A DNA stretch of 64,000 bases from Watersipora subatra (taxonomy: Eukaryota): assembly GCF_963576615.1 (NCBI RefSeq), contig NC_088716.1, forward strand, positions 43,495,910 through 43,559,909, written 5' to 3'. The position numbers and the translations under genes were made by a program. Below the pieces are notes generated by a model. That model searched no databases. It saw only the letters and a program-made list of their open reading frames with translations, and was not told the origin of the DNA. Shown here one piece after another: positions 3,609 through 43,174 of the stretch; positions within the stretch are counted from its first letter, which is position 1, and every line of letters begins with the position of its first letter.

Positions 3609-3709
3609 CTTTGTTACACTCGCTAACTGCTGTTCTGTGTTAGCTAAACTCTCTCTCAACTGGGCAGCCTGTAACATGAGCTCACGAGAGCCAGCCTGCT
3701 CAGTGACAT
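3609..3709 (-). CDS. Internal coding exon (phase 1 to 0) of the same gene: DVTEQAGSRELMLQAAQLRESLANTEQQLASVTK.
   Basis: Minus-strand acceptor 'cttatgcag|ATGTCACT' and canonical donor 'ACAAAG|gtgagtgt'. The phase matches the preceding exon at 4646-4975, which ends in phase 1. Confidence 0.5.
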
Positions 3710-9345: not shown

Positions 9346-9394
9346 TAAATGGTATTTACAGGTTTCTAATGAGTTGTTCACGGTGGATTGGTGC

Positions 9395-9800
9395 ACTTTT
9401 TTAAAGTGAGTTGGCACACTTATTTAAAGTATGTTGGCGCAATTGTTTAAAGTGTGTTGGTGCCCTCATTTAATGTTTATTGGTGCACTTATTTAAAACG
9501 TATTCGTGCACTCATTCAAAGTGTGTTAGTGCATTCATTTAAAGCGTATTGGTGCACTTGTTTAAAGTGTTTTGGTGCACATGTTTAAAGTGTGTTGGCG
9601 AACTTTTCAAACTGTGTTGGTGAACTCATTCAGAGGCTATTGCTACATTTGTTTGAAGTGTTTTGTACATTTGTTTAAAGGGTGCTGCTACACTTGTTTA
9701 AAGGGTGCTGCTACACTTGTTTAAAGGGTGCTGCTACACTTGTTTAAAGGGTGCTGCTGCACTTGTTTAAAGGGTGCTGCTACACTAATTTAAAAACAAA
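9395..9800. repeat. Two adjacent minisatellites: ~28-bp units (ttggtgcacttatttaaagtgtg-like, ~10 copies) followed by a 22-bp unit (ttaaagggtgctgctacacttg, 4-5 copies).
   Basis: Direct periodicity in the sequence. Confidence 0.85.
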
Positions 9801-13212: not shown

Positions 13213-14418
13213 CTGTAACAATTGGTATAAAACATTTCATTTGAAGGTTAAATGATGAAGTAAGTGCAGACCCAAAGGACATGGTCAGTTTTTAAATGAC
13301 TGATCAAAAACGAGCAGTTTTACATAATACAGTGGAAGCTCTGCTTACGAAATTATTATGTTTTGGATACCGTTTCATAAGCAGTAGGAATAACAATGAG
13401 CGCATGTTGCTCTATAAATACCCCAACTCGTTCCAAGCCACCACAAAACTCAGACATAATAATTGCATGTGTTATAAAATAATGGTTAAAACCTGTAAGA
13501 AATGCATATTAGAATCAGATTACTGCGTAAGAAATAGAAAAAATACACGTGAAAAGAAGAATGAACAGAGGAAAAAAGATTAAGTTCTCAAGATCATTAA
13601 GATTAAGATCAAGATCTCAAGTTACTAGGTTAAGTTACTCAAATTCATTGGTTAAAGAAGCTTAGTCAGTAGCAACTACGTTACCTGTCACTGTTTATAA
13701 GCTGTTTTAGATCTTATGCGAATGTGTAGCATATGAGGTAAGAAATGTTTTTCACCAATCTGTTATAGCTATGCCTTGAACCTTTGAATATTTGAATCAT
13801 GCATTGGCCGGACACGCAGAAATAAGCAAACACCTTCATTTAAAAGTTAAAATGGTAAATGTTGTATACGTTGATTAATAAAAAATAAATTTTCTGTGCA
13901 GAAACTTTTTTTTAGTACCCGCGCAACGCTAGGCATTCAGTAGTCTGCAGCCAAAAATATTTATCCTTTGGTCCTATCTTTTTATCGAGCCTACTTTTAA
14001 AAAAGATTTGTACAAAATAAATGTAAAAATTTGGCTATGCATATTAAATATCCACTAAGACATAGTTTCCCCTATTTATCTCATGTTAAAAATTGCAGTA
14101 ATCTCTCCTCTTTGCAAGAGTTACTTTGGAAAGAAAATTCTAAAGGTTGTTTATAAAAAGAAAATTTCTGCAAAATAAAAAATAAATTTTTTTGAAACAT
14201 GAGTCATAACTTTGACGCTTCCGAACACTTATACCGCTTCTACATTTTCACAATTACTCTACATGTAAGTACATACATATGTCCTTGTGCATGCAGCATA
14301 TCTGTATAGTACATGGTATATATGATACTGAAATCCATAAGGACCTCACAAGAAACAAATGGAAAAGCATGACTGGAGTGAGAACCAAAGAGGTTACGAC
14401 AACGCTGAATATTCTTGT

Positions 14419-14858
14419 GCCAATCAACATTAGAATAGCGAAATGATGAGAAGTTTTGAGCCAATCAACATTAGAATAGCAAAATGATGAGAAGTTTTGA
14501 GCCAATCAACATTAGAATAGCGAAATGATGAGAAGTTTTGAGCCAATCAACATTAGAATAGCAAAATGGTGAGAAGTTTTGAGCCAATCAACATTAGAAT
14601 AATGAAATGGTGAGAAGTTTTGAGCCAATCAACATTAGAATAGCAAAATGATGAGAAGTTTTGAGCCAATCAACATTAGAATAGCGAAATGATGAGAAGT
14701 TTTGAACCAACCAACATTAGAATAGCGAAATGGTGAGAAGTTTTGAGCCAATCAACATTAGAATAGCGAAATGGTGAGAAGTTTTGAGCCAATCAACATT
14801 AGAATAGAGAAATGATGAGAAGTTTTGGGCCAATCAACATTAGAATAGCGAAATGATA
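14419..14858. repeat. 41-bp minisatellite, about 10.7 copies (gccaatcaacattagaatagcgaaatgatgagaagttttga).
   Basis: Exact period of 41 bp (unit starts at 14419, 14460, 14501 and so on). Produces the artefactual ORFs 14240..14505. Confidence 0.9.
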
Positions 14859-17216: not shown

Positions 17217-17269
17217 CTTGAAAAAAATAAATGAAAATGTGTGAAAGATGCAAGACTTAGAGAACAAAC

Positions 17270-20200
17270 AGCATCAGTAACTAACATCTCGCTGCAACAG
17301 ATCAAGCATCTGACTCTAACCACATTCTCAGACAAGTTTTAAGGGTGGTTAAAGTGAATAGGGCAATTTGACTCGGTGCTTGCTGAATGAACACGTTTTG
17401 AACAAACTTAAGCGTCCAGGAAGAGGGCTGGCAAATATATCACAAAACATCTCAAAACATACGCAATTAAGAACAGATTTTGTTGCTTTCTACGCAGCAT
17501 TAAGAAAAAAGTTAAAGACTTGCACTATGATGGAGTGATACTGTCTTTCCGTTCATTGAACTTGCCTGAAAGATTATCCAAACCAATATTATAAAAGTCA
17601 TTGAGTTCAAACATTCAGTGAACTGGCAATAAATTCTTCTTGAAACTCCAGAAAAAAACAATTGACAGCAACTTATTATTTTATCAATATTTGGGAATGT
17701 CTAAAAAATGCTATGCATACAAGAATCTACTGTATACTACATAGTACAGAAAGTACAATTCTGGTGGGTAACTGTAATTTACATGTATATGGCTTTACTG
17801 TTATTCAACTAGCCCTTGATAATGCCTGTGAGACGCGCTACTAAGCTTAGAGTATGCTACCAAATCAAAAAATATTAAACCTCTGAAGAACATGATGCCA
17901 AGTTGTAGAAATAATAACCAGATTCACCTGAAAATTTTCGTTCCTTTTCCTCTCAAGCCTTGGCACCATCCTCTTTTTCATCGTGCTTGGTAACCTCATC
18001 TCGGAATTGGATGGAAAACATTGTGACATAGCTGCTGCATCCGCTAAGGATGACATGAAGTTCATGACTTGATGTTGAACTTGTTCTGCTGGTTTTGATG
18101 CAGTATTAGTTTTTAATGTAACAGACTGCAGTGATGATGTCATACCTTGAGGCACCGACTCTGCCAACTCCATCACTTTCACCTCACTCTTCGACTCCAT
18201 CTCAGAATGGGATGAGAGACAGAGATAGGATACGTTAGAGTACTGTTTAGTTCGAGGTCGTGGTAATCCAGATGTCATACCTGCTGCTGAAGATACCCTG
18301 ATATGCTGATATGGTGGTGGTGCTTCAGATGTCACACCTTGGGGCGATGATGGTGCTAGTGAAAATACCCTGTCTTGAGGTGGTGGTGCAGATGGCACTA
18401 CTCGAGGTGGTAGTGGTGGTGGTTTACTATAGTAATTCGTGTTTCCGTAAACTGACAGCCAAGCTAAAATTTATTAAATCCAATCTCTATCTAAAAATCA
18501 GCAAGTCTTATTATCTTATACATATACTCCAACTATAATATATTATGGCAAGACAAAGCGTAGTTCTTAATTGATTAAAAATACACTAGCGTGCTTGTGC
18601 CTTTGCATACATTTTGAGTTTTAAAGAACACTTTTCTAATACATACAGTGCAACCTCAGGTTACAATTTTTATCCATTACAGAGTTGGCATCATATGGGG
18701 AGAAAATCGTATAGAGAGATATAGAAAGCATAGTAATTATATAATGCGAACATCCCCTGCTAAAAATCATCAAAACTTTATACAAGTATACTGTACATAT
18801 TAAAAATTAGCAACAATGTAGTAGAGTAACTTTGGCGCCTATAGTTATCTACATCAACTTTAGTATATTTAGAGTATTTATTGGTTATAATCTGCATTAA
18901 AATGTAACATTGGAATGCGCTGAGCAGTACATACCGTAGAAGGTTCTTACCTTCAAGACAGACATATGTATAACATAGACTTTGAATTCACTTTAAATGA
19001 GTTCAGCTTACTAAACACAAATTTAAAGCTATGTTTTTGTATGCATTTTTAAACTATTTTATTGAATTTCAACTTTTCACTACTAAAATTTTATCACCTA
19101 TCGGTTTCTGGCTCTGTTTTCAGTGTAACTTTTAGTCGACTTGATTAAAACCTTTTTAACCTAATTCGCCAGGAAGCCTGAGCTATGCTGTTCTCGAAGA
19201 TGTTCTGTTTAATATCCAATGAAGTGGACTTTTGTTAGCAGGTAAAAAGAAGTTGCCTGACCACTGAACTTCCGTTTGAAGGGATTGCAACTCTAACTTT
19301 ACTACTGGTTAGTTTTAAAGGGAAAATATTAGTATTTTTCACATGAGAAATGCTGAACTGAGAGAAATTCTAGATTCTAGAGAACTAAGAGACTGCATCG
19401 CGTCTCTTTCATGCATTGTGAAAATGTTTTCGGTGAGCAGCATTTTGGCGTCTTCGTTATTTCCATGTACGTAATAAGCATACTGACTGCCAAATTTTAA
19501 CTCAAGCAAAAAATTTGTTGAATTGGTATGGTGAAATAAGATTCGTATGGTGAGGCGGAAAAATAATCATGTTCCAGTTCGTAAGGTGTAAACTCGTATA
19601 ACAGGGTAGTCGTATCCTGAGGGTGCCAATGATATCTGTATTAACAAATCCCACACTTTCATCATAAGTCTGTCTGTTACGTTAGTCCGTGTACGCATTA
19701 TGTTTCCACATTCTTGGCTGATTTCATCCAAACTTCACATGCATATGTGACAGGTGACATATGTGACAGGTGACATATGTGACAGGTGACATATGTGACA
19801 GGTGACATATGTGACGGGTGACATATGTGAAAGGTGACATATGTGAAAGGTGACATATGTGACAGGACATATCCTTGTCAATACAAATGAGGTCAGATCA
19901 GAAACTATTTTACAGCCTTATGTAATAGAAAAATTTCTCAGCTTTCCAAAACTGTTTTCGGAATTGGAAATAGTGCCATCGGCGCACAATCGAAAAGGTG
20001 CTGTTGGTCAATATGGTCAACATCAAAAAACTGAGAAATTTGTTTCCAAAAAGAATGGATTGGATTTTAAACAGTATCATCTATTGATGTTTAGGGAGGT
20101 CATTTCAACCGCACCCTACGAACATTACGTTTTTATGAATGTTAGAAATGGCTTGGCTTCAAAAAAGTTTAAGCCACATCGTTAATTTGACTTTGAGAGC

Positions 20201-20700
20201 CTATTGTGTACTATATGAAATGCCTCATTTGTATTGAAAATGATACGACCTGTCACATATGCTTCGTGCCCTCTACCAGGTCGCTAAAAGTATTTGGCTT
20301 CAAAACTCAGTCTGGTTCCTGGAAACCGTCTGGCCGAAGAAAGTCAGTCTGGTTCCTGGGTACTGTCCTATCAAACACCCACCTGCAGGCTATCTGATTG
20401 ACAATGAAATAAATTCTGGACATAAGCGGGTCGACTGCTACAGTAAGCCAGAAGGTAGTTGATAAGTGCAGGTAATACAGTGTCAGACTGCTAGGCTGAA
20501 TGTCATGAGTTCGAATCCCGCGCAAAACAATCTTTATGAAGATAATAGAAGAACTTGAATTATTGCCTGTATTATGTATTCAGTGTGACGATTTTAAGCA
20601 AAATTAGAAGATAGTCAGAGTTTTGTAAGTAATAAGTAATAGACTGTCTTCCTGCTTAGCAGAATATCTTTACTATAATAGGAGTGGTACCCGTGATGTT
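17270..20700. repeat. Segmental duplication, copy A, in module order Y-Pro-X-Z.
   Basis: 17270-17830 matches 27395-28345; 17830-18400 matches 24720-25260; 18400-19380 matches 26430-27380; 19380-20700 matches 28560-30310. Each pair is roughly 90-95% identical by eye. Confidence 0.8.
17928..18398 (-). CDS. Proline-rich coding exon, paralogous copy A: ...PPLPPRVVPSAPPPQDRVFSLAPSSPQGVTSEAPPP...EMESKSEVKVMELAESVPQGMTS...RKRNENFQ|gtgaat.
   Basis: ORF 17865..18398 (-). Canonical donor 'AATTTTCAG|gtgaatc' at 17928/17927. It is ~85% identical to the 3' part of the exon at 24722-25976. The 5' boundary is not resolved, since the frame is still open above 18398. Confidence 0.5.
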
Positions 20701-23700
20701 AAAAATTATTGCGTGAGAAATGGGTTTTATGAGCAAACTACCAGAGGTCCATCCATTACCTTCGGCATATTTAATGTGGAAATGTAGGCCCACTCCGGGC
20801 AATGCCTGGCTCAATTCGCAGTCTTGGAACTTTCATTTTCCATATAAAAGCACCACAATCTATCTGATGAAAAATGCAAGAACGCGCCTTTCCTTGTTAA
20901 ATCACTTAAATGTCACTATTAGAATAAAAACACCTTGAAGCAAGAAATTGGGCTCAAAAATTTTAACGAACAATAAAATTATATACAGTAGTAAAACTTA
21001 CTTCTAGATGTTCCCATGATCGACCTTTAAGCTTTAAACTTTTTTAATTAACTTGTTTGAAAAATAAAAATTGAAATAGCTGAAATGTTCGATACGCAAT
21101 ATAAAACTAGAAGTCACATCATGTAATCTTTCACAAAAAAAGAAAATTGATGGTTAACCAATCTAAATCAAGTAGCAAAACATGGTCTGGGCAGATACGG
21201 CTCTAAACGTTTACACAGAACCAATAAAGTTAGGTGTCAATAAGACTAGATATTAAGTGAGACAGACAAACAAAATTTGAAGTCACCTCATAGACATCAT
21301 CTGCTTGAACAATGGTTAGGGTCAAAGACTTTTGTTAAACAAAGCATTAGAGTCATTTACTGATTGTCACATGGAACCACGAGAATCATTGCAAATTGAA
21401 AGGGCAGCCAGAAACTTTGTAAAAAGTTGTCTGAAGAGGGAAAAGATCATCTAGAGAGGAATTGCTCATTCCTAACATTAAATAATAAAACTAGTTTATT
21501 CAATGGCTGACTTGGCAGTCTGAGAATGTCAGAGACTATAAACTGGCATAATTAAGACATGAAAATTCTTGATATGCAGTTTTAAACAAAAAATAATACA
21601 TTGACACTGACCGATGTAATAAATAATTTATTTACCAAATAAAAATATACAGTTAGACTGATATAAGAGTAAATACTTATAACATGAGGTCATGTGATTG
21701 AGCAGCTCTTTGTGCTCACTGATTGGCTGGCAGTCACACTACTTATTTTAATCTAAACCATCAGTAGGCCTGGTGACGCTTGGGATGTTTCCTTATCAAT
21801 CAGATACCCTAAAGGTGAGTGTTTAGGAAGCTGGTTCATAGGAACCAGATGGAGTTTTGAGACCAAATACTTTAGTGACTTGACTAAATAAAAAAGTATA
21901 TGCCGGTGAAGTTTGGAAAACATCAGCCAGTAAACATCCACAATCTTTTCAAGAATATGATAAATAATAACAATGAATAGAGAAGTACTCTGGACAAAAA
22001 CTGAACGAACCTGTCACGGGTGCTGATCCCCGGGCCTTAGGAGGAGCATTCCAGCGCCGATCCACTAAATAGTAAGAAGACATATTATATGAGTAAAATT
22101 ATTACACAGAAGTAATTATACTCTACTAAACATAATTAGACTAACACAAAAGTAATGCATGATACAGACAGCAAAGACAGTGGCTTTATAAACACATGAA
22201 TGATGCTATAACTAGGTGGTAATAGCCTTAGGACCTCGATAGAGTCAGGTAATAATCATGCATATGATGATCACTCTCTCTTACGCTACAGATATCGAAT
22301 ACCGTTAAGTATTCGAGCAACAATAACTCGAGCTGACATTTCGGTGAAGAGTTAGTTTATTGGTTGGCTATGTGCCAAAGCTTAAGTTTATCCAAATCCT
22401 TAACAAACAAACACAACTCCCTTTCCCCATCAGCTTCTATCACGCATAAAGTTGTGTAATCAAGCAGATTATCTTCATGTCCACCAATCACCTGACTGCT
22501 GCCCCAACTCACTTCAATCTAACAATCACCTGACTGCTGCCCCTACTCACTTCAATCTAACAATCACCTGACTGTTGCCCCAACTCACTTCAATCTAACA
22601 ATCACCTGACTGTTGCCCCAACTCACTTCAATCTAACAATCACCTGACTGTTGCCCCAACTCACTTCAATCTAACAATCACCTGACTGTTGCCCCAACTC
22701 ACTTCAATCTAACAATCACCTGACTGTTGCCCCAACTCACTTCAATCTAACAATCACCTGACTGTTGCCCCAACTCACTTCAATCTAACAATCACCTGAC
22801 TGTTGCCCCAACTCACTTCAATCTAACAATCACCTGACTGTTGCCCCAACTCACTTCAATCTAACAATCACCTGACTGTTGCCCCAACTCACTTCAATCT
22901 AACAATCACCTGACTGTTGCCCCAACTCACTTCAATCTAACAATCACCTGACTGTTGCCCCAACTCACTTCAATCTAACAATCACCTGACTGTTGCCCCA
23001 ACTCACTTCAATCTAACAATCACCTGACTGTTGCCCCAACTCACTTCAATCTAACAATCACCTGACTGTTGCCCCAACTCACTTCAATCTAACAATCACC
23101 TGACTGTTGCCCCAACTCACTTCAATCTAACAATCACCTGACTGCTGCCCCAACTCACTTCAATCTGTTAATCACCTGACTGCTGCCCCAACTCACTTCA
23201 ATCTATTAATCACGTGGCTGCCTGGCTTTATGCCTGCTATGATTGATGTGTTCTATTTACATAATGTAGGAATGAATGGGTTGACAGGAACCTAATACAG
23301 GGTCAAGATGTGACAATAAATATTTTAAAATCTAAAATATCTAACAATTTCACCATTCAAGTATTTAGACGCTAAAATTCACACACCAAGTTTCTTGCCA
23401 CAACCTTTACCAAGCCGAAGATCTTTGAGATTCATGGAGGTGTTTTTCTATGACAACCACTATGATATTATTAGATCATATATGTTAACATGTTAATATG
23501 TTATATCTACATTAACTTAACAAACAGTTATAAACTTTTAACAGAAGAGTCATCTCATCAAATTTAGAAATATACCAACAAGTTATTTAACCGTTTTTGA
23601 GATGTTAACAGTTAATACCAGCACTTCCAACCAACATACATTCTTCCTTCTCTTCCATTACCCCCATAAAGATAACGTTACCAAACAATGCTGACGAATA

Positions 23701-23780
23701 TTCTTCGCAGTCCTCTACCGTTTCCTCCGCACAGTCCGTAACAGCAGCATAATACAATTCCATACCAGGAGAGAAACACA
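20680..23780 (+). repeat. Composite ~3 kb interspersed repeat, copy 1, ending in the 38-bp array and then the TATATACATACAG satellite.
   Basis: Collinear with 31930-35340 and 40125-43160. Shared landmarks: 'ggagtggtacccgtgatg', 'ttaaccaatctaaatcaagtagcaaaacatggtctgggcag' and 'caatcagataccctaaaggtgagtgtttaggaagctgg'. Confidence 0.75.
22485..23210. repeat. 38-bp tandem array, about 19 copies (aacaatcacctgactgttgccccaactcacttcaatct).
   Basis: Exact 38-bp periodicity. Shorter arrays of the same unit lie at 24538-24721, 34885-35078 and 41565-41755. Confidence 0.9.
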
Positions 23781-24062
23781 GTATATATACATACATACAA
23801 TATATATACATACAGCATATATACATACAATATATATATATAGTATATATACATACAGTATATATACATACAGTATACATACATACAGTATATATACATA
23901 CATACAATATATATATACATACAGTATATATACATATATTGTATGTATATATACATACAGTATATATACATACAGTATATATACATACAGTATATATACA
24001 TACATTATATATACATACAATATATATACATACAGTATATATACATACAGTATATATAGTAG
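23781..24062. repeat. (TATATACATACAG)n-type satellite.
   Basis: Direct repeats. The same satellite occurs at 43175-43608 and 52449-52705, each time abutting the conserved 'cgcacgggtaataaaa...ttgcacagaaaat' module. Produces the artefactual poly-Tyr/Ile/Cys ORFs. Confidence 0.9.
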
Positions 24063-24537
24063 ATTAATTTTTGGCGTCGCACGGGTAATAAAAACGTTTT
24101 TGCACAGAAAATTTACATTTAATCAGCATATGCAACATTTACCATTCTAACTTTCAAATGAAGGTTTTTGTTCATTTCCGTGTACTGTGTTTATTTATGT
24201 GTACTAAGCTTATTTCTGTGAAATTCATACTGCGCCGGCTACTGTGCCCACTACAGCTTTATACTGATTGCATTAGTTTTGTTGGTCGTGTGAGTTGAAG
24301 CAATTTTCTTCTCGTATGGGCTCGTATTGTTCTTCTGACATGGCTTCACGCATAGCGTTAGCTGAAGTGTCAAACATGAAGCCATGAAAGAGTGACACAT
24401 GTTTGTTGAACGATCCTTCAAATTTAGGCAAAAATTTAAGCACAAATTTAGGCAAAAAATGAAGTACAAAAAAATTAAATGCTGTAATAAATACAAAATT
24501 AGTATGAAATAACAGAATATTTGTAATTTTCCCAACA

Positions 24538-24721
24538 ACCACCTGAATGTTGCCCCAACTCACTTCAATCTAACAATCACCTGACTGTTGCCCCAACTCA
24601 CTTCAATCTAACAATCACCTGACTGCTGCCCCAACTCACTTCAATCTAACAATCACCTGACTGCTGCTCCAACTCACTTCAATCTAACAATCACCTGACT
24701 GCTGCCCCAACTCACTTAAAC
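24538..24721. repeat. 38-bp tandem array, about 5 copies, directly abutting the stop or donor of the proline-rich exon.
   Basis: Same unit as 22485-23210. It ends at 24721, one base before the TGA at 24722-24724. Confidence 0.85.
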
Positions 24722-25976
24722 TCACTCAATCACTTTCACCTCACTCTTCGACTCCATCTCAGAATGGAATGAGAGACTGAGATAGGATACGTTAGAGTAC
24801 TGTTCAGTTCGAGGTAGTGGTAATGCAGATGCCATACCTGCTGCTGAAGATACCCCACCTTGGGGTGGTAGCGCAGATGACACTCCTCGAGGCAGTAGTG
24901 GAGGTGCTACCGCTGCAAATGCATTTGCTTGAGATAGTAGCGGTGGTGGTGGTGGTGCTTCAGATGTCATAGCTTGAGACGATGATGGTGCTGCTGAAGA
25001 TACCCCACCTTGAGGTGTTGGTGCAGATGACAATACCCTGCCTTGAGGTGTTGATGCAAATGACCCTACCGTGCCTTGAGGTGGCAGTGGAGGTGGTATC
25101 GCAGCAAATGCATTTGCTCGAGATGGTAGTGGTGGTGGTGCTTCAGATGTCACACCTTGGGGCGATGATGGTGCTAGTGAAAATACCCTGTCTTGAGGTG
25201 GTGGTGCAGATGGCACTACTCGAGGTGGTAGTGGTGGTGGGGCGGCTCCAAATAGCATACCTTGAGTTTGCAGTGATGCTGATGCCCTATATTGAGGCCG
25301 TGCCATGGCAATGCGACAGGTTTGTCCGTAGTTTTCTACTGGGGAGTTTGGTACTGGGGATGATTTATTGGACACTTGAGAATCAAATCCGGCATCTTTT
25401 ATCTGGTTAGTTACAGAGATATCATCATCGAAACGTGCTGAGGATTGAGAAGTCATGAAGGATTTTATAGAAGATGAAGTTCGTACCTGAGGACTAAAGC
25501 CAGTCGTTTTTGAAGACCTTTTTTTCATTACTCTGCTAGGAGACAGTTTAACAGGCAAATCTAGTCCCTGGATTAACAGAGGTGCTGCTGAAGTCTTAGC
25601 ACCAAATGATTCAGACTGCTTCGCAAGATTGCACAGCTTTTGTGCAGACATTGGCAATGTGGTTTCAGACTCTTGAGTCATTCCAAAATTCTCCTCCGTA
25701 CCTCTTGTACTCGGCAGCGAATCTGTGGAGTTCATGTGAACATTTTCGTCATCCTTTGACACTGCTGAAAGAGCAGAGACACTTGAAAGGTTTGATAAAA
25801 AGTTTAGTCTAGGTCTAAACTTCTTAGCTGATCTAGGCAGAGAATATCTGGCAGAAGTTGGTGAATATTTTGGAGAAGTTGAAACATGAGCCGCTTCAAG
25901 GTCACCAGGAGGAAGTGGGAAAGAGAGAGATGAACTGAGAGGTTGAGACATTGAAGAGGTGCTCTGCATCCCATAA
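24722..25976 (-). CDS. Large proline-rich coding exon, paralogous copy B (~418 codons). It has a Ser/Thr-rich N-terminal part, followed by repeated PPPLPP / APPPQ / SSAPTPQGGVSS motifs resembling an FH1- or WASP-like proline-rich tract, and ends EMESKSEVKVIE followed by TGA.
   Basis: ORF 24722..25987 (-), whose 'M' is a TTG. Minus-strand acceptor 'tttgaatttag|GTTATGGGATG' at 25977/25976. The TGA forms part of 'ATTGA|gtgagt', so it may alternatively be a splice donor. It is immediately followed by the 38-bp tandem array. Confidence 0.55.
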
Positions 25977-27924
25977 CCTAAATTCAAACAGTACTTTTAT
26001 CATCCCAAGATCATTCAATCAAGTAGGCTTGCATACAATAGATTTTGCTAGAGTGAATGATGGTAATCAGTAACCTTAGCACAACCCATTGCCTTTAAAT
26101 GTAGCCATGCAATAATTAAATACTGTTTTTAAGGAAGTCTTCAAAAAATCACAATGTAATGACTTATTTTAATTTTGTCTTAAAAATGTTAAACGATGTA
26201 TTGTAAAAGAATTATAAAAACAAGTTTAATATACACTGGTATAGTTTAACTCAAAGTCCTTATCAATATATGGTAGAATCAATCAACTAAGCAGGCTCTA
26301 AAAATCTGTTGACGCTCGCTAACACTCTTAGGAGAAATTATAATAATTTAGTTAATTACTTTTTGTGTTTTTTTGTGTTTTATGTTTTTGTGTTTATATG
26401 TTTGTGTTGATTTTTGTGTTTACTATAGTATTTCGGGTTTCTGTAAACTGACAGCCAAGCTAAAATTTATTAAATCCAATCTCTATCTAAAAATCAGCAA
26501 GTCTTATTATCTTATACATGTACTCCAACTATAATATATTATGGCAAGACAAAGCGTAGTTCTTAATTGATTAAAATACACTAGTGTGCTTGTGCCTTTG
26601 CACGCATTTTGAGTTTTAAAGAACACTTTGCTAATCCATACAGTGCAACCTCAGGTTACAATTTTTATCCATTACAGAGTTGGCATCGTATGGGGAGAAA
26701 ATCGTATAGAGAGGTATAGAAAGCATAGTAATTATATAATGCGAACATCCCCTGCTAAAAATCATCAAAACTTTATACAAGTATACTGTACAAATTAAAA
26801 ATTAGCAACAATGTAGTAGATTAACTTTGGTGCCTATAGTTATCTACATCAACTTTAGTATATTTAGAGTATTTATTGGTTATAATCTGCATTAAAATGT
26901 AACATTGGAATGCGCTATGAGCAGTACATACCGTAGAAGGTTCTTACCTTCAAGACAGACAGATGTATAACATAGACTTTTAATTCATTTTAAATGAGTT
27001 TAGCTTACTAAACACATATTTAAAGCTAAGTTTTTGTATGTATTTTTAAACTATTTTATTGAATTTCAACTTTTCACTACTAAAATTTTATCACCTATCG
27101 GTTTCTGGCTCTGTTTTCAGTGTAACTTTTAGTCGACTTGATTAAAACCTTTTTAATCTAATTCGCCAGGAAGCCTGAGCTATGCTGTTCTCGAAGATGT
27201 TCTGTTTAATATCTAATGAAGTGGATTTTTGTTAGCAGGTTAAAAGAAGTTGCCTGACCACTGAACTTCCGTTTGAAGGGACTGCAAGTCTAACTTTGCT
27301 ACTGGTTTTTAAGGGAAAATATTAGTATTTTTCACATGAAAAATGCTGAACTGAGAGAAATTCTAGACTAATTGTCTAGAACTAGCCTAGAACAAACAGC
27401 ATCAGTAACTAAAATCTAGCTGCAACAGATCAAACATCTGACTCTAACCACATTCTCAGACAGGTTTCAAGGGTAGTTAAGGTGAATAGGGCAATTTGAC
27501 TCGGTGCTTCCTGAATGAACACATTTTGAACAAACTTAAGCGTCCAGGAAGAGGGCTGGCAAATATATTATAAAACATCTCAAAACATACGCAATTAAGA
27601 ACAGATTTTGTTGCTTTCTACGCAGCATTAAGAAAAAAGGTAAAGACTTGCATTATGATGGAGTGATATTGTCTTTCCGTTCATTGAACTTGCCTGAAAG
27701 ATTATCCAAACCAATATTATAAAAGTCATTGAGTTCAAACATTCAGTAAACTGGCAATAAATTCTTCTTGAAACTCCAGAAAAAACAATTGACAGCAACT
27801 TATTATTTTATCAATAGTTGGGAATGTCTAAAAAATGCTATGCATACAAAAATCTACTGTATACTACATAGTACAGAAAGTGCAATTCTGGTGGGTAACT
27901 GTAATTTACATGTATATGGCTTTA

Positions 27925-28305
27925 CTGTTATTATTATTATTATTATATTATATGGCTTTACTATTATTATTACTATTATATGGCTTTACTATTATTATTA
28001 TATTATATGGCTTTACTACTATTATTACTATTATATTATATGGCTTTAGGGGCCTACTATTATTATTATATTATATGGCTTTACTATTATTATTATATTA
28101 TATGGCTTTACTACTATTATTACTATTATATTATATGGCTTTACTACTATTATTATTATATTATATGGCTTTACTATTATTATTATATTATATGGCTTTA
28201 CTACTATTATTACTATTATATTATATGGCTTTACTATTATTATTATATTATATGGCTTTACTATTATTATTACTATTATATTATATGGTTTTACTATTAT
28301 TCAAC
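27925..28305. repeat. Expansion of ~50-bp units (tatatggctttactattattattat-like), present only in copy B.
   Basis: The copy A ortholog (17790-17815) has a single unit. Produces the artefactual poly-Leu/Tyr ORFs 27768..28315. Confidence 0.85.
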
Positions 28306-29406
28306 TAGCCCTTAATAATGCCTGTGAGATAATGCCTGCAGCTTGTTCCAAGCTGAATAAATTTTAGCTTGGCTTTCAGTTTACAGAAACCCGAAATACT
28401 ATAGTAAATACAAAAACCAACACAAACATATAAACACAAAAACATAAAACACAAAAGATAATTAACTAAATTATTATAATTTCTCCTAAGAATGTTAGCG
28501 AGCATCAACAGATTTTTAGAGCCTGCTTAGTTGATAGACTAGTTCTCTAGAACTAGTCTCTAAGTTCTAGAGAACTAAGAGACTGTATCGCGTCTCTTTC
28601 ATGCATGGTGAGAATGTTTTCGGTGAGCAGCATTTTGGCGTCTTCGTTATTTCCATGTACGTAATAAGCATACTGACTGCCAAATTTTAATCCAAGCAAA
28701 AAATTTGTTGAATTGGTATGGTGAAATAAGATTCGTATGGCGAGGCAGAAAAATAATCATGTTCCAGTTCGTCAGGTGTAAACTCATATAACAGGGTAAT
28801 CGTATCCTGAGGGTGCCAATGATATCTGTATTAACAAATCCCACACTTTCATCATAAGTCTGTCTGTTAGTCCGTGTAGGTATCATGTTTCCACATTCTT
28901 GGCTGATTTCATCCAAACTTCACACGCATATGTGACAGGTGACATATGTGACAGGTGACATATGTGACAGGTGACATATGTGACAGGTGACATATGTGAC
29001 AGGTGACATATGTGACAGGACATATCATTATCAATACAAATGAGGTCAGATAACAAATTATTTTACAGCCCTATGTAACAGAAAAATTTCTCAGCTTTTC
29101 AATACTGTTTTCGGAATTGGAAATAGTGCCATCGGTGCACAATTGAAAAGGTGCCGTTAGTCAATATGGTCAACATCAAAAAAACTGAGAAATTTGTTTC
29201 CAAAAAAGATGGATTGGATTTTAAATAGTATCATCTATTTATGTTTAGGGAGGTCATTTCAACCGCACCCTACGAGCATTACATTTTTATGAATGTTAGA
29301 AATGGCTTGGCTTCACACAAGTTTAAGCCACATTGTTAATTAGACTTTGAGAGGCTATCGTGCACTATATGAAATGCCTCATTTGTATTGAAAATTATAC
29401 GACCTG

Positions 29407-29914
29407 CATACATGCCAAGTCTCCCGGTTTGGCCGGGACCCTCCAGTTTTTTAAGTCAGTCTCCCTTTTGCACAAAATCTCCCGTTTTCCTCCAGCTTTT
29501 TCAAATAAAAGTAGTGGTTTAATTTTTTTCTTTGCCGTTCTCCTTTTGTTTACTAGTTGTGAGCCCTCATCATCATACAAAGTTAGCAACAATGAAACAG
29601 ATCGCTATTAAACCGTATGTTTGCCATAAAACCTGGGCTATTTAGATTTAGCAACATTGATGTCTAACGATTTGCTCTACAGTTTTTCATCAATAAACAA
29701 AGATTATACATGGAGCTGTGACATATCGTTGGCAAACGACCATGACCTCACATTGATAGTAGAGTACCTGAACATTAAATAAAATCGTGAAAGGGCCTCC
29801 TATGTAAGTACCAATGAAGAAAAAAAACTTCACAAAGAAATCTAGGCTTCAGATTCAACTACTACATTTACCGTCAATCTCATGCTTTTTTTTCTCAACT
29901 ACTTGGCAAGTATG
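29407..29914. mobile_element. Non-autonomous hAT-like MITE (508 bp) with 14-bp TIRs (catacatgccaagt ... acttggcaagtatg) and a perfect 8-bp TSD, acgacctg.
   Basis: TSD at 29399-29406 and 29915-29922. An empty site in paralogous copy A (~20235, 'gatacgacctgtcacat') carries a single acgacctg. An 8-bp TSD is characteristic of hAT elements. There is no transposase ORF. Confidence 0.75.
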
Positions 29915-31929
29915 ACGACCTGTCACATGTGCTTCGTGCCCTCTACCAGGTCGCTAAAAGTATTTAGTTTCAAAACTCAGTCTGGTTCCTGGAAACCGTC
30001 TGGCCAAAGAAAGTCAGTCTGGTTCCTGGGTACTGTCCTATCAAACACCCACCTGCAGGCTATCTGACTGATAATGAAAGAAATTCTGAGCATAAGCGGG
30101 TCGACTGCTACAGTAAGCCAGAAGGTAATCGATAAGTGCAGGTAATACAGTGTCAGACTGCTAGGCTGAATGTCATGAGTTCGAATCCCGCGCAAAACAA
30201 ACTTTTATGAAGATGATAGAAGAACTTGAATTATTGACTGTATTATGTATTCAGTGTGACGATTTTAAGCAAAATTAGAAGATAGTCAGAGTTTTGTAAG
30301 TAATAAACTGTCTTCCTGCTTAGCAGAATATCTTTACTAGCCTAGGACACTTTTGCATTCGCGTCATCTAACTTTCAAATTTTCGCGGAGTCATTCATCT
30401 CGCGAAAATTTCATGAGCGAAACTAAACTATCATAACGAACGAGCGAAAACGCGAACTTAAATAGCTTTGTTCATTGATATCCACAAGAAAATCATCTAA
30501 TTAGAAATGCAGGTAACCTTTGTGTGTGGTTGGGCTCGTTGGGCAATTTCTGCTAAACTCATTATAGCTAATACGCCGACTGAGCAGCGTGGCAAAGCAA
30601 ATTGAGATAACAAGTTCTTTTGGAAAAGCAGGCCTGTATTCTCTGGTTGCAAATTGGGGCAGCTAATGTTAGGCGACTAGTTATGAGCATCTGGGGGTTT
30701 GGAGGGGCTGTATCAGCCCCCTCAACAGGTTTCTTTCATGTAGGGCCTCAACCGGGCATCTCACGTAAAGTTTTAAAATATTTTATCGGAAAGTATAAAC
30801 ATTGTTTCTTTAATTTGAGATTTGTTTGTTTTAGGTGATGTGACTGCTAGGACGTTTTCAGATTAAAACAGGCTAAGCTTGACCGCAGTTAAAACGCTCA
30901 GAAAAAAGACATCTTTTTTCTTTTGAGTGTTTCAACAAAGATCAATTTTGCCGATTTTATTTTTAGTTCATCCAAAGGTTTTTACGCTTTCGTTGGGCCA
31001 TTGCCAAATAGATGTTTGGTAAAACTTGACCTTTTGCAAACCTTTATAAAAGTCGTTAACAAAAATATTTTGCCAATCATGATAATAATGACGCCCAAGA
31101 ACTGTTAAAAGTTAACGTTTATCTCTATGGCTTGGAATAAAGTGATATTCTACAGCGATAAAAACCGTTCCCGTTAGACAAATAACTGTTCGAGTTAATG
31201 ATGTTGAGGTCGAATTATCTAAAGCACTTTATCATTACATGGGAACAGACCACAGAAATCCATTCGTGTTAACCAAGTGTTCGTGATAAAATTTTACATT
31301 CTATCCGAAGGCGAGTTCTCCGAGTTTGACTATACTTAGCCGCCAAAAATTCCTAAAAAGTTGGGGCGGCTCAGCCGGCCAGCTGTCCCAGGGAATACGG
31401 GCCTGTGGAAAAGCCAAGACAAATGAAGAAGATGATGATATTAGTTTAGTCACTGAATTTGTAACTGATGCGGATGAAAGTCTGGTAGGGAAAGTCATAA
31501 AATTGAATAATAATTATTGTAGCGATGAATTTTATTACCAACCAAAAACAATAACAACCTTGAGCCATGGCCACCACGTGCTATAAATACTTGAGATATA
31601 ATATTGGTGCCACATCAGCCACGGCGGGCAAGGGCAATGACCTAGACGTCATTGATAGTCCAAGAAACATATAGTAGCAAGCGATCAAATTGCATTGTTG
31701 ATCTCGCCCACACATTTCTACCCGCAATTCACAAATACAAACTAGTCTCAAATTGAAAAATTCTTTTACTAGTGAACTGGACCTGAGGAATCCAATTATG
31801 TTTGTTCTACTGCATTTATTTTCACATCCCTATATCTTCGCACTCATCAGATCCGCGAAATTAAGTTGTAGCGAAATTTTACTCTGTATGCTACTCACGA
31901 AAATAAATACTAGCGAAATATAAAGTGTC

Positions 31930-34900
31930 CGGGATATAATAGGAGTGGTACCCGTGATGTTAAAAATTATTGCGTGAGGAATGAGTTATATGAGCTGACT
32001 ACCAGAGGTCCATCCATTACCTTCGGCATATTTAATGTGAAAATGTAGGCCCACTCCGAGCAGTGCCTGGCTCGATTCGCAGTCTTGGAACTTTCATTTT
32101 CCATATAAAAGCGCCACAAGAACGCGCCTTTCTTGTTAAATCGCTTAAATGTCACTATTAGAATAAACACACCTTGAAGCCAGAATTGGGCACAAAAACT
32201 TAATGAACAATAAAATTATATACAGTAGTAAAACTTACTTCTAGTTGTATCATGTTCCCTTGATCGACCTTTAAGCTTTAGGATTTTTTTAATTAACTTG
32301 TTTGAAAAATAAAGTTTGAAATAGCTGAAATGTTCAATACCCAATATAAAATTATAAATCACATCATGTAATCTTTCACAAAAAAAAGAAAATTGATTGT
32401 TAACCAATCTAAATCAAGTAGCAAAACATGGTCTGGGCAGATACGGCTCTAAACGTTTAAACAGGACCAATAAAGTTAGGTGTCAACAAGACTAGATATT
32501 AAGTGAGATAGACAAAAAAAATTTGAGTTCACCTCATTGACATCATTTGTTTAAACAACAGTTAGGGTCAAGGACTTTTGTTAAATAAAGCATTAGAATG
32601 TTTACTGATTGTCACATGGAGCTACGAGAATCCATGGAATATGAAAGGGCAGCCAGAAACTTTATAAAAAGTTGTCTGAAGAGGGAAAAGGTCATCTAGA
32701 GAGGAATTGCTCATTCCTAACATTAAATAATAAAACTAGTTCATTCAATGGCTGACTTGGCAGCCATTGAATAAATAATTTGGTAAATGATTTATTTACC
32801 AAATAAAAATATACAATTAGACTGATATAAGAGTAAATACTTATAACATGAGGTCATGTGATTGAGCAGCTCTTTGTGCTCACTGATTGGCTGGCAGTCA
32901 CACTACTTATTTTAATCTAAACCATCAGTAGGCCTGGTGACTGCTTCGAATGTTTCCTTATTAAAGAATAGAGAAAGCATAATATTATTATGCTTTATTA
33001 GTTATCTTCAGGTGTTGACTGATGTTCTAAAAAAAGAATCAAGGAGATTGACCCACTAGAAGCTGAGATATAGCCAGCCAAACACAGGTCTACCTAATAA
33101 AGAATCAGAGGAAAACCCTTCGAAAATCCCGAAAACTGTGACGTATAAAATCGACTTAATGTTCATGTGCCGGAGTTGCGCACCCTTACCGCCGTTACGT
33201 ATAATGATTGTTTTGGCTACGAGATGTGAAACGCTTCTCGCGATAGTAAATAATTTACAGACTAGCTCTGGTTTCTCAGGAAAATCAAGCAAACATTGTG
33301 TGGTAAAGGCATTTACCCACAACCCCTCGCTGTGATTTTTCAAAACAGAAGAGCATATTTTGACTATTGTGCTTCAAATTTTAACTCGGTCTCCACGGAT
33401 ATGCTCCGAAGATCCTCTGTTCAACTAACGGCGCGTGTATGGTCTATATGCGACATCCGCGATTGCAGTTTGTTTAGAATAAGAAATGGGAATGTGAATT
33501 TTTGTTCATTCATCATTTTTCTACTGTGTATCTACTGCAGCATTTAGTTGATTTTCATTATTATCGTCACTATTAACAGACTGTAAGTTCACCACGGCCA
33601 TAATCTTAAAAAGAATAACTTGACCGTGCTGCTCTTGCTGTAAGAAAAGAAAACGATAATTTTTGATTTGATTTTTCTATTGATCTATTATCTTATCTAT
33701 GATTATTTTTTATGATTGATATAATAATCATAATGCATATTATACAAAATAATAATATAACTGCGTATAGAATAAATGATGTAGGCTAACTAATATAATT
33801 TGTAAAAAGTGATAGCAGAATGTTGCGAAATAATAGATGCGTGTAATTATTTTATTCTAAAACTAATCTACACGTCAGAGGGACTGGTTCGGAATTCTCA
33901 GAGCAATGATCGTTAGGCCCAATTTGATTGTTCTATACTTCCAGGGTTTAAACCAATTAAAACGCCGTGATTGTTATAGGAGAGCGCATTAGTTGGCTTA
34001 ATTGACCAATAGCACACAAGTCGATTTCATACGTCATATATCGATGATTACCAAAACACTTATGTTTTTTGGTAGACCTGTGTTTGGCTGGCTATATCTC
34101 AGCTTCTGCTTGGTCAATCTCCTTGATTCTTTTTTTAGAACATCAGTCAACACCTCAAGATAAATAATAAAGCATAATAATATTATGCTTTCTCTATTCT
34201 TTAATCAGATACCCTAAAGGTGAGTGTTTAGGAAGCTGGTTCATAGGAACCAGATGGAGTTTTGAGACCAAATACTTTAGTGACCTGACTAAATAAAAGA
34301 GTATATGCCGGTGAAGTTTGGAAAACATCAGCCAGTAAACATCCACAATCTTTTCAAGAATATGATAATGACAATGAATAAAGAAGTACTCTGGACAAAA
34401 ACTGAACGAACCTGCCGCAGGTGCTGATCGCCGTGCCTTAGGAGGAGCATCCCAGCGCCGATCCACTAAATAGTAAGAAGACATGTTAGATGAGTCAAAT
34501 TATTACACAGAAGTAATTATACTCTACTAAATATAATTAGACTAACATAAAAGTAATACATGATACCGACAGCAAAGACAGTGGCTTTATAAACACATGA
34601 ATGATGCTATAACTAGGTGGTAATAGCCTTAGGACCTCGATAGAGTCAGGTAATAATCATGTATATGATGATCACTCTCTCTTACGCTACAGATATCGAA
34701 TACCGATGAGTATTCGAGCAACAATAACTCAAGCTGACATTTCGGTGAAGAGTTAGTTTATTGGTTGGCTATGTGCCAAAGCTTAAGTTTATCCAAATCC
34801 TTAACAAACAAACACAACTCCCTTTCCCCATCAGCTTCTATCATGCATAAAGTTGTGTAATCAAGCAGATTATCTTTATGTCCACCAATCACCTGACTGC

Positions 34901-35340
34901 TGCCCCTACTCACTTCAATCTAACAATCACCTGACTGTTGCCCCAACTCACTTCAATCTAACAATCCCCTGACTGTTGCCCCAACTCACTTCAATCTAAC
35001 AATCACCTGACTGTTACCCCAACTCACTTCAATCTAACAATCACCTGACTGCTGCCCCAACTCACTTCAATCTGTTAATCACGTGGCTGCCTGGCTTTAT
35101 GCCTGCTATGATTGATGTGTTCTATTTACATAATGTAGGAATGAAAGGGTTGACAGGAACCTAATACAGGGTCAAGATGTGACAGTAAATATCTTAAAAT
35201 CTAAAATATCTAACAATTTCCCCATTCAAGTATTTAGACGCTAAAATTCCCACATCAAGTTTTTTGCCACAACCTTTACCAAGCTGAAGATCTTTGAGAT
35301 TCATGCAGGTGTTTTTGTATGAAACACACTACGTTGTTAT
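31930..35340 (+). repeat. Composite interspersed repeat, copy 2, interrupted by a nested TIR element and 3'-truncated at ~35340.
   Basis: Collinear with copy 1, except for the insertion at 32960-34205. Confidence 0.75.
32960..34205. mobile_element. Nested non-autonomous TIR element (~1.25 kb) with ~130-bp terminal inverted repeats.
   Basis: 32960-33095 is the reverse complement of 34070-34205 ('ttaaagaatagagaaagcataatattat...ccaaacacaggtctacc'). The element is absent at the homologous point in copy 1 (21775 'ttccttatcaatcagatacc') and copy 3 (40868). Its internal ORFs show no transposase motifs. Confidence 0.7.
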
Positions 35341-37559
35341 TGGAGCATATATAGGTAAGCCCTTTTATTATGGGAAACACAGAATTTCAGAACCTCCTAT
35401 TAAGATTTGACTGAAAACATACTGTAACGTGTAAGTTTACAACAAAATTCTTTATTTTCAGAATTTTCACATTTTATGCTATCATAAACTGCAATATAAA
35501 GAATATTAACTTGAAAACGACATTTAAATAAATGTTTTGCTGGCTGGTGGGGTTGCGACCTAGTGCATCCAGAAGTATCATTCAGTTTTATTGTTGTTGT
35601 TCTCTGTATAGAGATAAAATATAATTCTAAAATGCTCTCCAATTAAAATGAGACAACTTTTGTTACAGTTAAAACATAATTCGCAAGCATTTTAATCTTC
35701 AAACACCAGTTTTACCGTTACGAACACTTTCAAAATAGCGTCACGCTAGTCATTAAAATTTGTGATGATAGTACTAGGCTCGCTTGCAAAAATTATTATA
35801 ATTACATCACTACTCCATCCAGACAAACTTTTAGTAAAATAGAAAATTTGACACTTTCAGCCATTTTTACAATAATAACACAGGCATTGCAAAAAAATTT
35901 CATCACAGATATGACATTCTAATTCAACTATGATTATCACGCCATCAGCGCTAATTTAAAATTGTTCTGATCTCCAACTTCAACAATGAATAAAAGCTTG
36001 TTTGTTTTATACTTTATTTGAAAAATGGATCATACAGATAATTGTAAAAGAGATATTTGTAAATTGCTTCCTTTTAGTTTTAATAACAGAGACTAACCTG
36101 ATGCTTTTTTAAATCTAGTAATACTGATGAGGGACTGTATGAGCATTTAATCGTCTCAGTCGTTACTCTTTAATGTATAACTAAATTTCTGTTAGCGAGT
36201 TGCGATAAGAACAAACATCTAGACTGGTAGTAAATTATCATTTAAAATAAAGTTTTACATAATATACTATAAACTAGGTGCTTGTCTTGCGCTAATGATT
36301 AGATTAATTCGCTTTTAAAATATTTTTGTCAGTTGTTATTTCTTCTAAACAACGATCATGAATAGATAGGTAAATAGTAAGATAGTAAATAATGATTAAA
36401 TTAAATTAAATTAGGCTCAGATTACAACTGCTGTTAGTAAATATTTATTGCCCCATAATCTATAAATTATTTATTGTTATCGTTTCAAATGTTAGTTATC
36501 AACAATTTAATCAGTCACAAGAAGAGTTACTAATTTTTAGTTTGTGGAATTGGTAAAAAAACATATTTACATATCATTCATTGAATATAAATAGCTTTAT
36601 TGCCTGCAGAGTCTGTATATTGATGCAATTTTATTTGAATTAAAACTCTTCTAATTTTATAATAAATATGGTGTTAATTTCTAAACATCAACTAAACAAT
36701 AAGGTTTCACTTAGATCGGTTTAAGAATAAAGCACTATAATAGCTATGTAGGCTATGATGTATAATAAGCTACTACTCCAACTAAAATATATCATTTCAA
36801 ATAACTCTTTAAGAAGACTGCCATCTAAATTGACAGAAGGCAAGAGTTATCAAAAGCTTCGCAAAGAGCAGGAAGAATAAGCCAAGAACGACAGTCAGTT
36901 GTGTCATAACTATTAATACAATATGACTGAGAAGAGACAAGCTATGAGAGATGAAGTATTCAAAACACCGTAACAATGTACTATATTCCTGCAAGTCAGT
37001 ACACACAGGGTGTCACATCACACTGTGCTACCGAGTTCATTAGTGTCTTATGACTATCATGGTGTCTTTTTGTCACATGCATTTGCATCCCAATGAGACG
37101 CCACACAATCGTCAATATATAATGGACTAACTGGCCGATTTTAAACTTTTTTGAAGTTTTAAATAGATAAGATGTTGTATTATGACATATTAAAATTAGA
37201 GAATGTTTAAAAAACTTTGAAAAATGCACCAAAAATTTTCTGCAAGAATCTCATAATAGAAAATCTTACACATGTGTTACAACATAAAGTTAATAAATAC
37301 CTTCAACTTAATAGACAGTTACAGATATTTAACAGAAGAGTCAGTATCATCAAACAATTAGATTCATCCTATCAAATTTAAACATACCAACAAACTATTT
37401 AACAGGTTTTTAACATGTTATGTTTTTAACAGGTTACGAGATGTTAACAATACATACCATTAAGTTCTTCATATTCCTCTTCAAATTCATTCATTGAGTC
37501 CCCCCAATAGGTATCACACACTTTCATGGCTGGAGAGACAGATATATAATAAGTATATA

Positions 37560-38420
37560 TATACTACAGCTGTGCCATCCGGCGTTGCCCGGGTAATAGA
37601 AAAGTCTTTGGACAGAAAATTGATTTGTATTTAACATATAACAACATTTGCCATTCTAACTATCAAACTACATATCATGAGAGAAGTGTTTTGTCTTATA
37701 AATAATGAGAAGGAGTGAAGAGTTGCTCGCTATTAGCCATTTTAATGATGTGAGCGAACAGCTTCTCATGACGTTATGCTATAACCCGCGTCATACACAA
37801 AGCAGTTAGGTATTTGCTCTCATATAATGACTTATATTGGCAGGCTAGCAATTTGATTTCTGTAGTCTAGTGGGTAAGGCGTCAGACTAGTGAGCGGCAA
37901 GGTCTGAGATCGAATCTTCTTCGCTACAGAATATTTATTCCAAGATTTTAAGATCTATAGCTGGACAATCAAACATGACAAACTTTGATTTATATATAGA
38001 CTAGCTGTGCTACCTGGCATTGCCCGGGTAATAGAAAAGTCTTTTAACAGAAAATTGATTTGTATTTAACATATAACAACATTTGCCATTCTAAAACTAC
38101 ATATGAGAAAAGTGTTTTGTCTTAGAAGTAATGAGCGTTTTTGTTATTGGCCCGCGCGCTATTAGCCAGTATGTTTAGTAATGTGAGCAAACAGCTTCTC
38201 GTGACGTTATGCTATGACCCGTATCATACGCAAAGCAGTTAGGTATTTGCTCTCATATAATGACTTATATTGGCAAGCTAGCAATTCGATTTCTGTAGTC
38301 TAGTAGGTAAGGCGTCAGATTGGTGAATGGCAGGGTCTGAGATCGAATTTTCTTCGGTACGGAATATAAATTCCAAGATTTTAAGATCTATAGCCGCACA
38401 ATCAATCCTACAAACATACG
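37560..38420 (+). repeat. Tandem duplication (2 x ~430 bp) of a unit containing the 'cccgggtaatagaaaagtc...ttaacatataacaacatttgccattctaac' module and a tRNA-like segment.
   Basis: 37560-37990 and 37990-38420 are ~90% identical. The tRNA-like parts at 37855-37940 and 38285-38370 have a T-arm-like 'gatcgaatc' and complementary ends 'tctgtag...ctacaga', but their D and anticodon stems do not pair canonically. Confidence 0.7.
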
Positions 38421-43160: not shown

Positions 43161-43174
43161 TGGAGAGAAACACA

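Follow-up and report, generated by a model that had tools for sequence, protein, structure and literature searches.

How did a single locus come to carry the same four sequence modules twice, but in two different orders? The question is raised by a 64-kb window (the whole stretch of 64,000 nucleotides analyzed here) of Watersipora subatra contig NC_088716.1, spanning positions 43,495,910 to 43,559,909 of assembly GCF_963576615.1. A sequence-only reading of this window had described modules Y, Pro (carrying proline-rich exon sequence), X, and Z, arranged as Y-Pro-X-Z in one copy (copy A) and Pro-X-Y-Z in the other (copy B), and had proposed a duplication followed by inversion or fold-back-mediated rearrangement. 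Both orders were recovered in a self-BLAST of the window (E-values effectively zero), within a few bases of where that reading had placed the modules, and every module match between A and B was in direct orientation:

17261-17805 (A) and 27389-27932 (B), plus strand: Y, 96.5% identical by BLAST.
18167-18298 (A) and 24724-24855 (B), direct BLAST match: first piece of Pro, 94.7% identical.
18312-18422 (A) and 25130-25240 (B), direct BLAST match: second piece of Pro (111 bp), 100% identical.
18422-19374 (A) and 26418-27367 (B), plus strand: X, 96.1% identical by BLAST.
19369-20262 (A) and 28559-29415 (B), plus strand: first piece of Z, 90.6% identical by BLAST.
20245-20683 (A) and 29915-30347 (B), plus strand: second piece of Z, 94.3% identical by BLAST.

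The perfect identity of the 111-bp Pro piece is not significant once the number of such windows is allowed for. Given the junctions described below, we see a somewhat better than even chance that the locus arose through a tandem duplication and an insertion made by template switching, of the MMBIR (microhomology-mediated break-induced replication)/FoSTeS (fork stalling and template switching) or polymerase-theta type, in one or a few closely spaced events.

The two copies had been thought to end near positions 20700 and 30310. The modules do lie there, but the ends do not: colinearity runs on to 23483 in A and to 35352 in B, through BLAST matches of 20674-21518 with 31935-32763, 21620-21799 with 32784-32964, 21798-22688 with 34203-35089, and 23017-23483 with 34886-35352. 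In full, copy A (18167-23483, 5.3 kb) and copy B (24724-35352, 10.6 kb) run colinearly in one orientation, B being twice as long because of private insertions. The parts beyond the four modules are:

20684-23483, plus strand: continuation of copy A, matching 31935-35352 and 40033-42038 by BLAST.
31935-35352 apart from a TTAA element, plus strand: continuation of copy B (BLAST and Tandem Repeats Finder, TRF).

Overall, this looks like a genuine, moderately old tandem segmental duplication in transposon- and satellite-rich eukaryotic (animal-like) DNA; the window (36% G+C, zero Ns) is dense in tandem arrays.

Which of the two module orders came first can be read from the following features:

17261-17833, plus strand: Y in copy A, by BLAST to 27389-27932 and 28302-28329.
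18423-19374, plus strand: X in copy A, its first 53 bp being the inner part of an inverted-repeat arm.
19375-20683, plus strand: Z in copy A, directly abutting X.
53097-53937, plus strand: an old X-Z copy, 69-71% identical to and colinear with 18636-19647 across the X/Z junction.
26279-26471, plus strand: left arm of the inverted repeat in copy B, its inner 53 bp also present in copy A beside X.
27368-28564, plus strand: composite insertion private to copy B, 1197 bp between X and Z, delimited by its junction sequences.
28565-30339, plus strand: Z in copy B, interrupted by a miniature inverted-repeat transposable element (MITE).

Because X and Z are contiguous both in copy A and in the old copy near 53 kb, their adjacency is ancestral, and copy B carries an insertion. 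This is incompatible with an inversion after duplication, as X and Y read in the same direction in A and B and only the 183-bp right arm is inverted.

The insertion is built from recognizable pieces. From left to right, it consists of a 21-nt filler, then Y (27389-27932, resuming at 28302-28329) with an internal satellite (27913-28301), fillers at 28330-28355, an inverted copy of 26279-26471 at 28356-28538, and a 26-nt filler at 28539-28564. The fillers repeat, in direct or inverted form, sequence located a few bases to 0.9 kb away: TAATGCCTG re-copies Y sequence lying 14 nt upstream, the palindrome CAGCTTGTTCCAAGCTG has CCAAGCT in common with the start of X, and the 26-nt filler contains AGTTCTCTAGAACT, the exact reverse complement of the adjoining Z flank. 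Fold-back-mediated rearrangement thus holds on a small scale only, in the snap-back or palindromic fillers and the 190-bp segment copied in inverted form from 0.9 kb off, and not on a larger one. The two ends of the insertion share a 25-nt direct repeat (27364-27388 and 28535-28559, 22/25 positions matching), the right junction is palindromic, and the 11-mer TCTAGAACTAG occurs within the window only at the two insertion junctions. In copy A, the corresponding site reads TTCTAGATTCTAGAG, and the insertion falls exactly between its two TTCTAGA copies; since both copies are present in this empty site, the block has no clean target-site duplication. Terminal inverted repeats were not found at the exact ends of 27368-28564, where the best inverted match was 17/22 and offset by 8 nt from the right end. 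The inverted-repeat-like score of the block ends reached 16, against a shuffle maximum of 13, and stems from a CTAG-rich near-palindrome.

The inverted repeat of ~180 bp that had been reported to bracket X and Y in copy B is real, and pairs 26279-26471 with 28538-28356 (91% identity with gaps; 96.2% across the 183 bases that align, with one further 10-nt indel). As 53 bp at the inner end of the left arm also occur in copy A, the left arm predates the duplication and is the pre-existing template, the right arm being the new copy. These two arms and the two Y copies are the only ones in the 64 kb, and the similarity between the start of Y and the arm does not exceed that of shuffled sequences. 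A transposon bounded by this inverted repeat (26279-28538) was considered and rejected: its flanks (GGTAGAA vs AGACTAG) do not match and provide no target-site duplication, and X runs straight into Z in both copy A and the 53-kb copy. The satellite expansion is likewise confined to copy B, with 27/33-bp units at 27913-28301 (TRF). Y resumes right after it, 28302-28329 corresponding to 17806-17833, which identifies the satellite as an internal expansion of Y's own 3′ motif TATATGGCTTTACTGTTATT.

The rearrangement also involves a proline-rich exon on the minus strand, represented by three features:

24725-25996, minus strand: proline/serine-rich open frame of copy B, 424 codons.
18167-18422, minus strand: proline-rich fragment of copy A, the last ~80 homologous codons only.
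17834-18166, minus strand: segment U, found in copy A only, within a stop-to-stop frame at 17868-18470.

The copy-B frame begins with a serine-rich, non-repetitive 5′ part of ~250 codons followed by APPPLPP-type repeats. This 5′ part (252 codons) was open in 0/20000 shuffles, and a plausible splice acceptor (tttgaatttag followed by G) can be recognized by eye near 25976. Copy B retains the 5′ 421 codons of the exon and reaches a stop 3 codons past the duplication breakpoint, where a 38-bp satellite starts. Compared to copy B, copy A lacks 24856-25129, a net loss of 261 bp that is in frame, as well as 25241-26417, a 1177-bp deletion with 1-2 bp of microhomology at its junction that removed two-thirds of the exon from its 5′ end, together with the acceptor and 139 bp at the outer side of the left arm. 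The two copies had been described as paralogous proline-rich exons; they do share sequence, but the description is overstated, since copy A is down to ~80 codons without the 5′ two-thirds, and 7/7 substitutions within the shared 132 bp of exon are nonsynonymous, which led us to reject purifying selection on the shared part.

What copy A has in addition is U, which extends the proline-rich frame by 100 codons (open in 20/20000 shuffles) and has no second copy within the window. Neither U nor the left flank of copy A is homologous to copy B, except for the 28-nt Y tail; Y in copy A begins 32 bp past the stop of the copy-A open frame, just 3′ of this minus-strand open reading frame (ORF). U is probably the original 3′ end of the exon. 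We infer that the exon originally extended through U and was interrupted by the duplication breakpoint, in which case the whole exon would now be present in neither copy.

No relative of the exon was detected. The 421-aa copy-B ORF matched 0 Pfam families, and no homologue was found in a word-indexed search of 5.8 billion proteins or in an exhaustive phmmer search against 1.84 billion representatives; an exact-sequence look-up returned no record. Pfam also yielded nothing for the concatenated minus-strand frames of at least 40 aa at 1-13 kb, a scan that could miss short exons. The APPPLPP, IPPPLPP, and APPPPP runs within serine-rich, low-complexity sequence resemble FH1-like proline-rich disordered regions. 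Unlike these, the exon comes without an FH2 domain, any other Pfam domain, or a homologue (exon and 1-13 kb frames), and a formin (FH1-FH2) gene was rejected on the absence of an FH2 or other Pfam domain from the exon and the 1-13 kb minus-strand frames.

At the boundary between the two copies, the relevant features are a third, partial copy and a family of 38-bp satellite arrays:

40033-44054, plus strand: third partial copy, matching 20979-24535 by BLAST, with its own TTAA element at 42148-43024.
22485-23220, plus strand: 38-bp satellite of copy A, 19.4 units (TRF).
24534-24717, plus strand: 38-bp satellite at the A/B junction, 4.8 units (TRF).
34886-35073, plus strand: 38-bp satellite of copy B, 4.9 units (TRF).
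41567-41771, plus strand: 38-bp satellite of the third copy, 5.4 units (TRF).

Copy A and the third copy cease to be homologous exactly at 24533/44054; next come the 4.8 satellite units, which are joined to the exon at ATCAC, inside a loosely similar CCAACTC...ATCAC context. The A/B junction is, judging by these sequences, no long-homology crossover. A three-way comparison over 1661 sites gave 33 substitutions unique to A, 46 to B, and 88 to the third copy, so that, under a rough clock, the third copy is an older outgroup. Each duplicated unit carries one array of the 38-bp satellite, in addition to the array at the A/B junction, with widely differing numbers of units, and the unit resembles the exon-breakpoint sequence (TGCCAACTCCATCAC). 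Exact patterns of this satellite and of Y had zero matches in the metagenomes of the Joint Genome Institute (JGI) and in IMG/VR. The stretch between copy B and the third copy (35353-40032) does not match the other copies and contains a 433-bp unit twice (37554-38405).

Copy B carries three further private insertions, all of which differ in structure from the Y-carrying block:

29407-29914, plus strand: hAT-like MITE, flanked by an 8-bp target-site duplication (ACGACCTG) where A has an empty site.
30340-31934, plus strand: inverted-repeat element, B only, 1595 bp, flanked by a TA target-site duplication where A has an empty site.
32965-34200, plus strand: TTAA element, B only, 1236 bp, with 144-bp terminal inverted repeats, a TTAA target-site duplication, and again an empty counterpart in A.

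The first of these had already been identified as a MITE restricted to copy B, and its coordinates proved exact. It has short terminal inverted repeats (CATAC(A/T)TGCCAAGT, 14 nt), an 8-bp target-site duplication, no coding capacity, and an empty paralogous site through which copy A reads straight; it is termed hAT-like, as its superfamily is assigned by target-site-duplication length only. Like other MITEs and transposons nested within repeat-rich introns or intergenic DNA, the MITE, TA, and TTAA elements are textbook insertions, and X-Z is itself an old repeat. By contrast, the Y-carrying block, made up of local sequence, has neither a clean target-site duplication nor proper terminal inverted repeats. 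Z also contains a small element (19854-20261) bounded by 39-nt inverted repeats (CATATGTGACAGG...), whose counterpart region in B is 28927-29045. The terminal motif of this small element has given rise to a 16-bp tandem array (19742-19866; 28927-29019), and its right end was the landing site of the hAT-like MITE.

We then considered the timing of these changes. Kimura two-parameter (K2P) distances between A and B were 0.034 for Y, 0.032 for X, 0.036-0.051 for Z, and 0.029-0.072 for the other modules, while the inverted-repeat arms differed by 0.039. The Y copy (0.034), the inverted arm (0.039), and the A/B duplication (0.032 for X) are therefore indistinguishable in age. In the scenario we favor, the tandem duplication would have proceeded via microhomology, with its left breakpoint inside the minus-strand exon, and the insertion would have been synthesized by template switching during repair or replication, in the same event as the duplication or soon after. 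Its templates would have comprised Y, copied directly from ~10 kb away, and the arm, copied in inverted orientation from 0.9 kb away, with snap-back fillers in addition. In copy A, the 5′ two-thirds of the exon would have been lost through the 1177-bp deletion and its 3′ end (U, then Y) kept. Afterwards, the 27/33-bp satellite would have expanded from Y's 3′ motif, three transposons would have inserted into B, and the exon fragments would have decayed neutrally.

MMBIR is characterized by discontinuous duplications with deletions and inverted segments, microhomology of 2-5 bp, and endpoints near repeats (Hastings et al. 2009, PMC2621351). The locus combines a discontinuous duplication, a deletion, and an inverted segment, in the form of the tandem duplication, the relocated Y, the inverted 190-bp copy, and the 1177-bp deletion in A. 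It also shows apparent microhomology (ATCAC where the satellite joins the exon, 1-2 bp at the deletion in A) and locally templated fillers at three junctions. Moreover, the other B-private insertions come with clean target-site duplications and terminal inverted repeats, and the 27368-28564 block with neither. This combination of junctions appears to match the published MMBIR signature, and from the structure and junction sequences, which can be read directly, we infer a template-switching origin.

Complex non-recurrent duplications attributed to FoSTeS/MMBIR include the human PLP1 and MECP2 rearrangements and the DUP-TRP/INV-DUP (duplication-triplication/inverted-duplication) structures. The present locus resembles such duplications in its discontinuous duplication, deletion, and inverted segment, in donors lying within ~10 kb, in junctions with apparent microhomology of 1-5 bp or short templated fillers, and in breakpoints beside satellites and palindromic motifs. 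It differs in that the event is fixed or old (3-7% diverged), in its scale of kilobases rather than hundreds of kilobases, and in that a single-event origin and the ancestral state are deduced from one sequence. Polymerase-theta end joining offers a second parallel, as the fillers are direct or reverse-complement copies from a few nucleotides away, among them 14 nt that repeat the flank exactly in inverted form and a re-copied stretch of 9-11 nt. Typical polymerase-theta fillers are <30 nt, however, and the two long pieces of this insertion (573 and 183-193 nt) fit a break-induced-replication-like process better.

Several points weigh against a template-switching origin. The polarity of some steps is set by parsimony, namely Y at the left of A as the source, and A's TTCTAGA-TTCTAGA as a pre-insertion site rather than an excision footprint. 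A single event is not proved by equal divergence; the K2P values of 0.032-0.039 are only consistent with one. All other insertions private to B are transposons, so the prior for a transposon here is not small, and the CTAG-rich near-palindrome at both ends does give a weak inverted-repeat-like score (16 vs a shuffle maximum of 13).

A first alternative is that 27368-28564 is a non-autonomous DNA transposon that inserted after the duplication. A's Y and the left arm would then be unrelated pieces of that transposon family, close by chance, and A's TTCTAGA a target or footprint. The locus sits in a dense nest of transposon remnants, copy B acquired its three other transposons after the duplication, TTCTAGA flanks the block on both sides, and the CTAG-rich motif common to the two ends scores above all shuffles as an inverted repeat. 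However, both TTCTAGA copies are already present in A's empty site, which leaves no clean target-site duplication, although the site may be an excision footprint; the inverted-repeat-like match misses the true right end by 8 nt, and the near-palindrome also reproduces the flanking target. Moreover, no significant similarity links the start of Y to the 190-bp arm, nothing else Y-like or arm-like exists in the 64 kb, A's copy of Y lacks both ends, and the 3.2-3.9% divergence of Y, X, and the arms would have to be a coincidence. We consider a transposon origin rather unlikely on this balance. Duplication followed by inversion or recombination between the 190-bp arms fares far worse and strikes us as extremely improbable: a 183-193-bp inverted repeat does bracket X and Y in B, but both modules are oriented as in A, a Y located outside the arms cannot arrive between them by inversion, and the X-Z contiguity in A and in the 53-kb copy indicates an insertion without any flip.

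The structure could also be an artefact, with A and B representing divergent haplotypes assembled in tandem (a heterotype false duplication), or a mis-join within repeats. Heterotype false duplications are common in assemblies (Ko et al. 2022, PMC9516828). Repeats are very abundant at the locus, and it resembles such false duplications in presenting two adjoining copies that differ by a few per cent and by indels; a 3-7% divergence with presence or absence of transposons is possible between haplotypes of highly heterozygous marine animals. Unlike false duplications, however, the copies have non-allelic flanks, U facing the 38-bp satellite on the left and 23484-24533 facing 35353 onward on the right, and the window is gapless, with zero Ns. 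The join at 24533/24534 lies outside any shared repeat, and the older third copy attests to a real duplication history. An allelic relationship would also have to accommodate copies 3-7% apart, three B-private transposons with target-site duplications and empty sites in A, and several extra structural differences between alleles, as needed for the exon-truncating deletion and the shifted Y in A. An assembly artefact therefore appears quite unlikely.

What does the rearrangement mean for the locus? No function is evident for the duplication or the insertion, which amount to an ordinary structural rearrangement and not to a new biological system or kind of element, and the locus opens no long-standing question. 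The rearrangement left one coding exon divided into two incomplete pieces and produced a 190-bp inverted repeat whose spacer measures 1.9 kb. In practice, gene counts and "paralogous exon" calls will be wrong if both pieces are taken as intact, A being a decaying fragment and B a truncated one. The junctions also provide a readable natural case of multi-step templated repair, with one segment inverted from nearby, another copied from ~10 kb away, and fillers of the snap-back type. Multi-step events of this type are well documented in humans, yeast, and other organisms. A stronger version, which we regard as decidedly improbable, is that template switching in the germ line, in a single event, duplicated the locus and at the same time divided the orphan exon into complementary halves, with a new stop in B at the junction and an inverted repeat placed just 5′ of the exon, which would be inside the gene if the promoter is further upstream. 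If transcribed, such a locus could yield a new truncated protein isoform along with a long hairpin RNA as a possible source of small interfering RNAs (siRNAs), and, if this version were true, it would represent gene remodeling by MMBIR in a marine invertebrate, caught in the act.

Elsewhere in the window, an exon-like ORF at 4590-5021 (minus strand, 143 aa) has a sole detectable homologue, 61% identical, which sits without annotation on an 896-bp TARA metagenome scaffold (ERZ28653426), and two further minus-strand frames (1327-1461 and 3570-3737) look like coiled coils. These three frames may be host-gene exons downstream of the proline-rich exon. No RNA genes were detected across the whole window, either by Rfam at the gathering threshold or by ARAGORN, which found no transfer RNA (tRNA).

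A non-LTR (long terminal repeat) retrotransposon at 58770-61585 (plus strand) has ORFs with RVT_1 and zf-RVT domains; the RVT_1 match, that of a non-LTR reverse transcriptase, spans 59449-61585 (Pfam, E = 5e-26), and the window holds further transposon ORFs. A 2-kb copy of this RVT_1 element, 93% identical, is found on the ENA metagenome contig ERZ6864376:c_000000102814, which indicates that DNA of the same or a close species was present in that sample. Taken by itself, the sequence and its two metagenome matches hint at nuclear DNA of a eukaryote, probably a marine animal. Two long ORFs (600 and 268 aa) at 47073-49802 (plus strand) probably belong to a DNA transposon; their sole match was a weak, sub-threshold one to DUF6589, and exact-sequence look-ups of two transposon ORFs of the window gave no record. 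Two minus-strand ORF fragments resemble known domains by eye, Tc1/mariner-type helix-turn-helix at 56888-57112 and cysteine-rich GIY-YIG at 62060-62350, and both are transposon remnants. The tandem arrays include a large 33-bp satellite of ~70 units at 54134-56452 (94% matches), which bears no relation to the A/B duplication. Others include a GA-rich microsatellite of ~880 bp (6435-7323) and arrays of 51-bp, 41-bp, and 23-bp units at 2685-2995, 14415-14857, and 9388-9794, respectively.

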